From Escherichia coli (GTDB taxonomy: Bacteria; Pseudomonadota; Gammaproteobacteria; Enterobacterales; Enterobacteriaceae), in assembly GCF_003334305.1 (NCBI RefSeq), contig NZ_QOWS01000001.1: 64,000 nucleotides of DNA. One strand, 5' to 3'. Each line of letters opens with the position of its first letter. Within the stretch, counting starts at the first letter, position 1. Shown in pieces: positions 12,641 to 33,783 of the stretch. Under the pieces are notes generated by a model. The model was not told where the DNA came from. It did no database searches and saw only the letters and a list, made by a program, of their open reading frames with translations. The position numbers and the translations under genes are program-made.

Positions 12641-12728
12641 TGAATGCCGAACCGCGATGTAAATAACGACAAAAACAAAATTGGCCGCTTCGGTCAGGGC
12701 CAACTATTGCCTGAAAAAGGGTAACGAC

Positions 12729-21110: not shown

Positions 21111-21267
21111 ATTTGCGACCATTCATAAACTTACTGGATATAATGTTCTAAAAGATTATAATCCTTACGCTAACTGTTAAAGCTGGGGCTGGGCAGCATT
21201 GACTACTCAGGGAAGGTACTCATCTTTATCTTGTGTTTCTTACGTAACAACCAGACTAAAGTGATTT

Positions 21268-22263
21268 ATGAACGATAACGTTTTGCTCATAGGAGCTTCC
21301 GGATTCGTAGGAACCCGACTACTTGAAACGGCAATTGCTGACTTTAATATCAAGAACCTGGACAAACAGCAGAGCCATTTTTATCCAGAAATTACACAGA
21401 TTGGCGATGTTCGCGATCAACAGGCACTCGACCAGGCGTTAGCTGGTTTTGACACTGTTGTACTGCTGGCAGCGGAACATCGCGATGATGTCAGCCCTAC
21501 TTCTCTCTATTATGATGTCAATGTTCAGGGTACCCGCAACGTGCTGGCAGCCATGGAAAAAAATGGCGTTAAAAATATCATCTTTACCAGTTCCGTTGCT
21601 GTTTATGGTTTGAACAAACACAATCCTGACGAAAACCATCCACACGATCCTTTCAACCACTACGGCAAAAGTAAGTGGCAGGCAGAGGAAGTGCTGCGTG
21701 AATGGTATAACAAAGCACCAACAGAACGTTCATTAACTATCATCCGTCCTACCGTTATCTTCGGTGAACGCAACCGCGGTAACGTCTATAACTTGCTGAA
21801 ACAGATCGCTGGCGGCAAGTTTATGATGGTGGGTGCAGGAACTAACTATAAGTCCATGGCTTATGTTGGAAACATTGTTGAGTTTATCAAGTACAAACTG
21901 AAGAATGTTGCCGCAGGTTATGAGGTTTATAACTACGTTGATAAGCCAGATCTGAACATGAACCAGTTGGTTGCGGAAGTTGAACAAAGCCTGAACAAAA
22001 AGATCCCTTCTATGCACTTGCCTTACCCACTAGGAATGCTGGGTGGATATTGCTTTGATATCCTGAGCAAAATTACGGGCAAAAAATACGCAGTCAGCTC
22101 TGTGCGCGTGAAAAAATTCTGCGCAACAACACAGTTTGACGCAACGAAAGTGCATTCTTCAGGTTTTGTGGCACCGTATACGCTGTCGCAAGGTCTGGAT
22201 CGAACTCTGCAGTATGAATTCGTCCATGCCAAAAAAGACGACATAACGTTTGTTTCTGAGTAA
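21268..22263 (+). CDS. gne: NAD-dependent UDP-N-acetylglucosamine 4-epimerase (Gne-type) encoded immediately upstream of galF
   Basis: 331 aa ORF, N-terminal GASGFVGTRLLE Rossmann motif, SDR epimerase family; position between wcaM and galF as in GalNAc-containing E. coli O types (from memory). Confidence 0.7.
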   Translation: MNDNVLLIGASGFVGTRLLETAIADFNIKNLDKQQSHFYPEITQIGDVRDQQALDQALAGFDTVVLLAAEHRDDVSPTSLYYDVNVQGTRNVLAAMEKNGVKNIIFTSSVAVYGLNKHNPDENHPHDPFNHYGKSKWQAEEVLREWYNKAPTERSLTIIRPTVIFGERNRGNVYNLLKQIAGGKFMMVGAGTNYKSMAYVGNIVEFIKYKLKNVAAGYEVYNYVDKPDLNMNQLVAEVEQSLNKKIPSMHLPYPLGMLGGYCFDILSKITGKKYAVSSVRVKKFCATTQFDATKVHSSGFVAPYTLSQGLDRTLQYEFVHAKKDDITFVSE

Positions 22264-22319
22264 TGCAGGCGAGTCAGAGAAAAAAGGACCAGGTTGGACT
22301 ACGATTATTCGGAAAGAGG

Positions 22320-22339
22320 TACTGATTAAATTATCAGTA
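22320..22339. promoter_or_regulatory. 20-bp palindrome TACTGATTAAATTATCAGTA (CTG-N10-CAG), LexA-box-like, in gne-galF intergenic region
   Basis: Read directly; arms TACTGAT / ATCAGTA. Confidence 0.3.
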
Positions 22340-22505
22340 TGCGGAATTCCGAGTAATCCGAGTAACCCAGATGCTGATGGTGTGTAGTGTTATCGTAAGG
22401 TTTAATCAAAGTTATGCGGAACTAAGCTTTGGTATATAGCCATAACGTTTGGCTAACCAATGGCAATAATTTACGCACTATCAGCCACTTAGAGGTAGGA
22501 AAAGA

Positions 22506-33675: not shown

Positions 33676-33783
33676 TCACTGATGCCGCGTGCGCAGAATC
33701 ACTATCACTGTTGTTAAATCCAGAATTTGAACCTGCAACAGCACCAGCAGGCGATACATCAAATCAGGCACCTCATTGGTTAG
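33676..33783 (-). pseudogene. hisI: Degenerate 3'-terminal fragment of hisI (last ~35 codons plus stop), displaced upstream of the his-linked polysaccharide cluster
   Basis: Minus-strand translation ...LTNEVPDLMYRLLVLLQVQILDLTTVIVILRTRHQ* parallels the HisI C-terminus; also ~85% nucleotide similarity to 46790-46860 inside intact hisI. Confidence 0.7.

Follow-up and report, generated by a model that had tools for sequence, protein, structure and literature searches.

A LexA-box-like palindrome between gne and galF of Escherichia coli: probably the tip of an enterobacterial stem-loop rather than an SOS operator

Described operators and stem-loops and the gne-galF spacer

LexA boxes of the E. 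coli type follow the consensus TACTG(TA)5CAGTA, and their departure from it is expressed as a heterology index (HI). Among 24 boxes tested experimentally, LexA binders extended up to HI 12.6 and non-binders began at HI 15.5, and the authors of that study placed their cut-offs at 13.2 (PSOSP HIc1) and 14.8 (PMC12527982). Stem-loops in mRNA, either between cistrons or in 3' untranslated regions, form a second group of described elements, which includes REP-type stabilisers and the wzc attenuator; a stem-loop attenuator between wzc and the downstream genes in cps and colanic-acid clusters has been mentioned for Klebsiella (PMC3438125). RcsB boxes are defined as TN(G/A)GAN4TC(T/C)NA (PMC7913699), and an RcsAB box is found at −187 to −174 of the P1 promoter of Klebsiella galF (PMC3438125).

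We analyzed a stretch of E. coli DNA of 64,000 nucleotides (the window), in which an initial annotation had singled out a LexA-box-like palindrome, TACTGATTAAATTATCAGTA, between gne and galF and had proposed that, if functional, it would tie UDP-sugar supply to the SOS response. Read directly from the sequence, the 20-mer has the CTG-N10-CAG core with an AT-rich centre (CTGATTAAATTATCAG, 22322 to 22337) and the TA flanks that had been claimed, with complementarity at 8 of 10 symmetric positions and 7-bp arms, TACTGAT and ATCAGTA, around TAAATT. Its position between the two genes was confirmed as well, with a gap of 56 nt after the gne stop codon (given as 57) and of 166 nt before the galF ATG (given as about 170), in a spacer of 242 nt (22264 to 22505). 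The locus is identical to that of E. coli strain H15, where wcaM, the gene for GlcNAc-P-P-undecaprenol 4-epimerase (gne), galF and an O46/O134-type O-antigen cluster are annotated. The coordinates of the features are collected in Table 1.

Compared with LexA boxes, the palindrome is alike in its CTG-N10-CAG core, TA flanks, AT-rich centre and an HI near that of polB, but differs in its CTGA/TCAG halves, in overlapping no recognizable promoter, in its distance from the ATG and in being confined to Escherichia. The larger stem-loop in which it is nested resembles intercistronic and 3'-untranslated stem-loops in being a stable hairpin between co-oriented sugar-pathway genes, in having no promoter or terminator signal of its own and in keeping its structure more than its sequence. 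It differs from REP and ERIC elements in being single-copy and not repetitive, from Rho-independent attenuators in having no U-tract, and from the known intercistronic stem-loops in its large apex, constant in length and variable in sequence, and in having no Rfam family. Its arms share with the RcsAB box (TAAGAAT-ATTCTTA) a GA-N4-TC core and a location about 150 to 200 nt upstream of galF, comparable to that of the Klebsiella P1 box, but their half-sites are everted (TCCGA-N4-TCGGA, not TNRGA-N4-TCYNA), and a covariance model of the element found no homologue at the Klebsiella galF locus. JUMPstart/ops (RF01707) is likewise a conserved cis-element and lies among the same polysaccharide genes, but is a separate feature downstream of galF and shares neither sequence nor structure with the stem-loop. 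It was among the Rfam matches found elsewhere in the window at the gathering threshold, namely, the algC RNA motif at 12675 to 12724 (plus strand, inside the colanic-acid cluster), JUMPstart at 23658 to 23696 (plus strand), the His operon leader at 53819 to 53942 (minus strand) and the sRNA STnc240 at 56681 to 56755 (plus strand).

Table 1. Features of the gne-galF region, in window coordinates
Feature	Position	Strand	Description
gne	21268..22263	+	Upstream gene; open reading frame and RefSeq annotation of the identical locus (GlcNAc-P-P-undecaprenol 4-epimerase); stop codon ends at 22263
Outer 3-bp extension (ACT)	22298..22300	+	Pairs with 22361-22363 across a 2x2 internal loop; minimum-free-energy (MFE) fold and pair counts
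Conserved outer stem, 5' arm GATTATTCGGAAA	22303..22315	+	Pairs with 22346-22358; two alignments
Apical hairpin	22319..22340	+	8-bp stem 22319-22326/22333-22340 (closing G.U), 6-nt loop 22327-22332; Escherichia-specific; MFE folds
LexA-box-like 20-mer TACTGATTAAATTATCAGTA	22320..22339	.	CTG-N10-CAG, HI 11.95
Internal loop, 3' side of apical hairpin	22341..22345	+	With 22315 and 22346, site of the sampled E. coli polymorphisms
Conserved outer stem, 3' arm ATTCCGAGTAATC	22346..22358	+	Pairs with 22303-22315; alignment pairs 12-59 and 13-58 vary
3' partner of outer extension (AGT)	22361..22363	+	In the conserved TCTGAGT flank
galF	22506..23399	+	Downstream gene; open reading frame and RefSeq annotation of the identical locus

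LexA scoring, chance expectation and promoter context

The HI matrix was recovered by regression from 363 pairs of sequence and HI for E. coli K-12 (Table S1 of PMC12527982). The recovered matrix, in which the consensus takes HI 0, reproduced all 363 published values within 1e-4 and returned the classical HI of recA (4.31), sulA (4.65) and uvrB (6.11). With this matrix the palindrome scored HI 11.95, made up of penalties at A6 (3.01), T7 (1.41), A10 (0.95), T13 (2.17), A14 (1.41) and T15 (3.01). This value lies below both the binder limit of 12.6 and the PSOSP cut-off of 13.2, and two genuine SOS boxes, those of polB (12.09) and dinB (12.85), score worse. HI scoring was a check that the initial annotation had named, with a poor score counting against a LexA box; the score is borderline-positive, not poor, so the likeness it had pointed out is borne out in numbers. 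Its remark that the halves read CTGA/TCAG and not CTGT/ACAG as in the sbmC box is likewise correct (A6 and T15), and the palindrome thus lacks the T, less often G, found at position 6 of LexA half-sites. The penalty of 3.01 for A at position 6 corresponds to a base present in 1 of the 38 half-sites implied by the matrix, and none of the validated boxes in the K-12 table and the tested-box table carries CTGA in both halves.

The sbmC box used for comparison, TACTGTATATAAAAACAGTG at 62668 to 62687, scored HI 5.09 and is separated by 15 nt from the sbmC ATG at 62703, against HI 11.95 and 166 nt for the gne-galF palindrome; it sits on its own promoter and abuts the gene start, whereas the gne-galF palindrome overlaps no promoter at scan level. 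This sbmC box has G at position 20, and the K-12 table entry, TACTGTATATAAAAACAGTA, has HI 2.77. RefSeq places the sbmC start at a GTG at 62686, inside the SOS box; the ATG at 62703 gives the N terminus MNYEIKQ.

We then compared these matches with chance expectation. The bare CTG-N10-CAG pattern occurred 15 times in the window, with 11.5 ± 3.3 occurrences expected from shuffles, which is no excess. Boxes with an HI of 11.95 or lower were expected at 0.13 per 64 kb in a first-order Markov simulation and at 0.2 to 0.3 from composition alone, and about 10 to 25 are expected by chance per genome; one such box in 64 kb is unremarkable and does not go beyond chance. Two more CTG-N10-CAG boxes, at 33706 to 33725 (HI 13.15) and 31830 to 31849 (HI 13.19), lie inside AT-rich O-antigen genes and show that AT-rich DNA yields near-threshold LexA scores. 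Most likely the palindrome, being AT-rich and carrying CTG and CAG, matches the LexA consensus only as a by-product, at a borderline score and at chance level.

Scans of the spacer (22264 to 22505) returned no promoter-like site at a threshold of 9/12 and no terminator-like site. The sole promoter-like match overlapping the box, TGGACT-18-TAAATT at 22304 to 22333, was noted by inspection; it reached 8/12, below the scan threshold, and is not conserved. Upstream of gne, in the wcaM-gne spacer, a promoter-like TGGATA-16-TATAAT (10/12) is present at 21135 to 21162 and is a candidate promoter for gne and perhaps galF. In other genera, a −10-like CTATACT precedes the galF ATG by about 37 nt, which puts it some 125 nt downstream of the position of the palindrome; the equivalent block in K-12 is GCTATAAT (CTATAAT). 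E. coli with gne has TTACGCA (22472 to 22478) where other genera have CTATACT and K-12 has CTATAAT; to judge from these letters, the proximal galF promoter may be weakened in gne-carrying E. coli, and galF may depend on read-through from gne.

Two further blocks of the spacer were conserved. A small hairpin at 22481 to 22499, UCAGCC ... GGUAGG (UCAACC ... GGUGGA in other genera and K-12), has the Shine-Dalgarno sequence of galF in its 3' arm and was the only other conserved spacer helix picked by RNAalifold; this predicted hairpin may be a 5'-terminal or Shine-Dalgarno-sequestering structure of the galF leader. A GTGTAGTG block at 22380 to 22389, about 20 nt past the stem-loop, is conserved in Escherichia, Citrobacter, Trabulsiella and Kluyvera, and a similar block, GTGTGTATTC, is found upstream of K. 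pneumoniae galF, after the RcsAB box.

Anatomy and conservation of the enclosing stem-loop

Folding of 22264 to 22400 placed the palindrome inside a second inverted repeat, GATTATTCGGAA ... TTCCGAGTAATC, a larger conserved structure that the initial annotation had missed. The segment 22298 to 22363 folded into helices of 3, 12 and 8 bp with −25.0 kcal/mol (z = −4.82), and none of 200 shuffles was as stable; the minus strand of the same segment folded nearly as well (−20.4 kcal/mol; z = −4.85). As a hairpin on its own, the palindrome was somewhat unusual (z = −2.75 over 40 nt; z = −3.3 and P of about 0.004 for the 30-nt apex). Neither the inner nor the outer stem is followed by a T-run, whether in E. 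coli or in the other genera.

Conservation was assessed in gne loci from one genome per species, which gave an alignment of 18 sequences, and after addition of 7 metagenome variants obtained by a pattern scan, which gave 25 sequences from about ten genera. The outer arms, CGAnnnnTCGGAAA ... TTTCCGAnnnnTCTG (TTTCCGAnnnnTCTGRGT), were present in the 18 species representatives and in further metagenome contigs; besides Escherichia, the genera sharing them are Citrobacter, Enterobacter, Pseudescherichia, Lelliottia, Trabulsiella, Kluyvera, Cedecea and Siccibacter. The 13-bp outer helix was paired in 87.6% of the cells of the 18-sequence alignment and in 89.8% of those of the 25-sequence alignment, and pairing reached at most 67% when the register was slid, giving a sharp peak at register 0. 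Compensatory changes, with 3 to 5 pair types across genera, were found at alignment pairs 12-59 and 13-58, the latter occurring as U.G, G-C, G.U, A-U and U-A, and 4 of the 13 helix pairs were changed on both sides. The covariation score of the helix exceeded those of 500 of 500 shuffles in both alignments, a result that rests on few clades and few independent events and on a shuffle control that ignores relatedness. Across the 2x2 internal loop, the outer extension consisted mostly of U-A/U.G and G.U pairs: among the 25 sequences, pair 5-66 was always paired (U-A in 13, U.G in 12), pair 3-68 was paired in 18 and pair 4-67 in 15. Stem cells with G.U outnumbered those with A.C by 18 to 4, which favours an RNA of the plus strand, the sense strand of gne and galF. 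The MFE structure contained the outer stem in 14 of 15 plus-strand folds, with z values ranging from −1.0 to −6.4. The element thus shows both the conserved helix and the stability beyond that of shuffled sequences by which a structured cis-RNA is recognized.

The apex between the arms is 27 to 30 nt long in 16 of 18 species (19 nt in Siccibacter) and shows no sequence conservation. CTG-N10-CAG was absent from the apex of all 16 non-Escherichia spacers, so the box is not conserved across genera. Among the 18 lineages examined, a significantly folded apex was found only in Escherichia (z = −3.3) and Lelliottia, and a structured apex was rejected as a conserved feature (mean z of −0.4 over the 18 species). 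The distance from the gne stop codon to the stem varied between 8 and 39 nt, and that from the end of the stem to the galF ATG was 138 to 153 nt in 17 of 18 sequences.

The covariance model detected one copy of the element per gne-galF spacer and no further copy in the window, the K-12 wcaM-galF spacer, the region upstream of K. pneumoniae galF or non-enterobacterial gne loci. Of the strong metagenome matches, the 18 whose upstream sequence was visible are all flanked by gne and galF, and a nineteenth ends at a contig edge. Two weak matches, of 27 and 24 bits (contig positions 2582 to 2652 and 4964 to 5034), lie in GC-rich metagenome contigs without gne or galF and are probably chance matches to the search pattern. 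Rfam had no family at the site, either for the whole window at the gathering threshold or for the spacer at E ≤ 10. An origin from a mobile element or an attC-like site was rejected: the element is single-copy and has no left-side terminal match and no GTTRRRY core.

Two repeats touch the 3' arm. A tandem 9-nt repeat, CCGAGTAAT CCGAGTAAC, occupies 22350 to 22367, at and just past the arm, and its second copy reads TCTGAGT in other genera. The last gne codons, TTTGTTTCTGAGTAA (22246 to 22266), resemble the 3' arm and its flank (22346 to 22367; TTTCCGAGTAATC..TCTGAGTAA in relatives), a likeness that, going by the letters, could be a duplication relic or reflect a translation-sensitive alternative pairing. 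Pairing of the 5' arm with the 3' end of gne gave −12.3 kcal/mol and a z of −4 in Escherichia and z values of −2.6 to −3.6 in two Citrobacter species; we did not adopt it as a translation-sensitive switch, its mean z over the 18 species being only −1.4.

Within E. coli, the gne-galF spacer was found in the gne carriers, 1,314 of 5,426 complete genomes; K-12 has neither gne nor the spacer. A 30-mer with the palindrome (22311 to 22340) was exact in 1,191 of the 1,314 genomes, and flanking control 30-mers were exact in 1,216 and 1,271; the palindrome is conserved no more than its flanks. The 30-mer 22315 to 22344 was exact in only 535 genomes, a count confounded by the common C22342T polymorphism. 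The E. coli polymorphisms inspected, at 22315, 22319, 22342, 22343 and 22346, all lie outside the 20-mer; the variants were C22342T, A22346T and A22315T, as well as G22343T and an E. albertii-type GTAGATGG, and G22319A turns the closing G.U of the apical hairpin into A-U. In E. albertii the apex is identical to that of E. coli, and none of the E. coli and E. albertii copies inspected departs from the 20-mer except that of E. coli strain N9. There, an IS3-family element (250 to 1500 of the N9 locus) interrupts the palindrome after TACTG, between window positions 22324 and 22325, with a CTG target duplication, so that an intact palindrome is dispensable in at least this clinical isolate. Deletions were seen elsewhere in the spacer: strains PEC1003 and P31_YH1 lack 12 nt at about 22415 to 22426, and about 50 nt (22390 to 22440) between the stem-loop and the galF leader are missing in strain 23CRST032 and E. 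albertii.

Interpretation of the palindrome

The reading that we favour, and consider reasonably likely, is that the palindrome is the Escherichia-specific apical hairpin of the stem-loop of about 66 nt at 22298 to 22363, an element that acts at the RNA level, and most likely not an SOS operator. The palindrome is nested in an outer stem that is conserved with compensatory changes, its apex is variable, and the element is restricted to the gne-galF pair. Transcription through the spacer, the strand and the molecular role are what we infer from these features. Since neither a terminator nor a promoter signal was found between them, gne and galF would share a transcript that starts at a promoter upstream of gne; in the RNA between the two cistrons the stem-loop would fold and could serve processing, stability or the decoupling of one cistron from the other, and the 8-bp tip of Escherichia would lengthen and stabilize it. 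The role proposed is generic because the element has no U-tract and no known processing motif. A simple RNA hairpin would need neither the near-constant length of the apex nor the constant distance of 138 to 153 nt from the stem to the galF ATG, and a DNA-level site would account for both as well.

Weak binding of LexA at 22320 to 22339 is physically plausible, if rather doubtful, given a score within the range of in vitro binders and worse scores for polB and dinB. That LexA binds incidentally and controls nothing, which would be compatible with the RNA hairpin, is a tentative and slightly less probable reading, in keeping with the 10 to 25 such chance sites expected per genome; against it, two symmetric CTGA half-sites, a combination for which there is no validated example, may cost more than the additive HI model allows for.

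It is unlikely, on the balance of the alignment evidence, that the conserved unit is instead a DNA-level module, in which the arms are two 14-bp pseudo-palindromic boxes for a dimeric regulator, possibly one of the NarL/FixJ type such as RcsB, with the palindrome in between. The two boxes, TnCGA-N4-TCGGA at 22300 to 22313 and TCCGA-N4-TCnGA at 22348 to 22361, are about 48 bp apart, 4 of 5 positions are palindromic within each arm, whose GA-N4-TC geometry is that of Rcs boxes (PMC7913699), and the 5' box matches the RcsAB box of K. pneumoniae galF P1, TAAGATTATTCTCA, at 11 of 14 positions (PMC3438125); the constancy of apex length and galF distance speaks for such a module as well. However, with everted half-sites the defining RcsB positions 3 and 12 fail, and membership of the arms in the RcsAB/RcsB class was rejected: T[A/G]CGA-N4-TCGGA fails at both positions in 25 of 25 sequences, and TCCGA-N4-TC[T/C]GA fails at position 3. 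The N4 segments are, moreover, related by reverse complement, not by identity, and change together, the G.U-type mismatches far outnumber A.C, and in K-12 and K. pneumoniae, both of which are without gne, galF has no such element upstream. Whether read as RNA or as a DNA module, the palindrome is in the variable segment between the conserved parts.

A functional SOS operator is very unlikely. LexA on 22320 to 22339 would here repress galF, either at an unrecognized promoter, such as TGGACT-18-TAAATT, or as a roadblock to read-through from gne, and DNA damage would raise GalF and UDP-sugar. The HI below the binder limit and the PSOSP cut-off fits this proposal, as do the promoter-like match of 8/12 with its −10 inside the box and the invariance of the palindrome in the E. 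coli and E. albertii copies inspected. The K-12 table boxes TACTGATGAT... (HI 9.40) and AACTGATTAA... (HI 14.07), which we take to be those of symE and ybfE, also share the CTGAT half-site. Nevertheless, such a box is expected at chance level (0.13 to 0.3 per 64 kb), it combines A6 and T15, and no other genus with this gene pair has it. It lies far from the ATG in a spacer where the scan found no promoter, its conservation is no better than that of its flanks, and the IS3 insertion within it is tolerated. Our literature search found no paper linking galF to LexA or SOS, and a search on the gne/galF intergenic promoter and Z3205/Z3206 found nothing relevant; K-12, which is without gne and the spacer, is presumably the strain used for the published LexA chromatin immunoprecipitation. 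The proposal that galF and UDP-sugar supply are under SOS control thus found no support, given the chance frequency, the missing promoter overlap, the restriction to Escherichia and the lack of excess conservation. Also very unlikely, and marginally less probable still, is a combination of the two, in which the conserved stem-loop would be an undescribed cis-regulatory RNA whose Escherichia tip has also evolved into a weak LexA operator inside the gne-galF unit, as an SOS-relieved roadblock or a competitor of RNA structure; if that were true, UDP-sugar and O-antigen precursor supply would be linked to DNA damage.

An operator for another Escherichia-specific dimeric DNA-binding protein would suit the near-perfect palindrome and its invariance in the sampled Escherichia genomes but is highly improbable, as the site is single-copy and the RNA-hairpin context suffices as an explanation; to our knowledge, from comparison by hand without a weight matrix, the palindrome fits no consensus spacing of CRP, FNR, Fur, Cra, ArgR, TrpR or Lrp. 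Least credible is a weak intrinsic terminator of gne, which the initial annotation had named as an alternative: a stable hairpin does start 35 to 39 nt past the gne stop codon, and in this respect the suggestion came nearer the mark than SOS control, but a U-tract is missing past either stem in E. coli and other genera, and the terminator scan of the spacer was negative.

For the SOS field, the palindrome that we regard as the tip of an RNA hairpin is a caution that a box passing the classical HI cut-off can be a chance palindrome, a question that comparative context resolves quickly. The enclosing stem-loop, single-copy and about 55 to 66 nt long, has covariation support and no Rfam match, occurs in at least ten enterobacterial genera, with finds confined to loci in which gne precedes galF; to the extent covered by Rfam and our literature search, it appears to be undescribed, if of a familiar kind. 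For the O-antigen locus on which serotyping relies, it is a marker of the 5' junction, and it could fix the expression ratio of two enzymes whose products enter the O-antigen and capsule precursor pools, UDP-GalNAc or Und-PP-GalNAc on the one side and UDP-glucose on the other.
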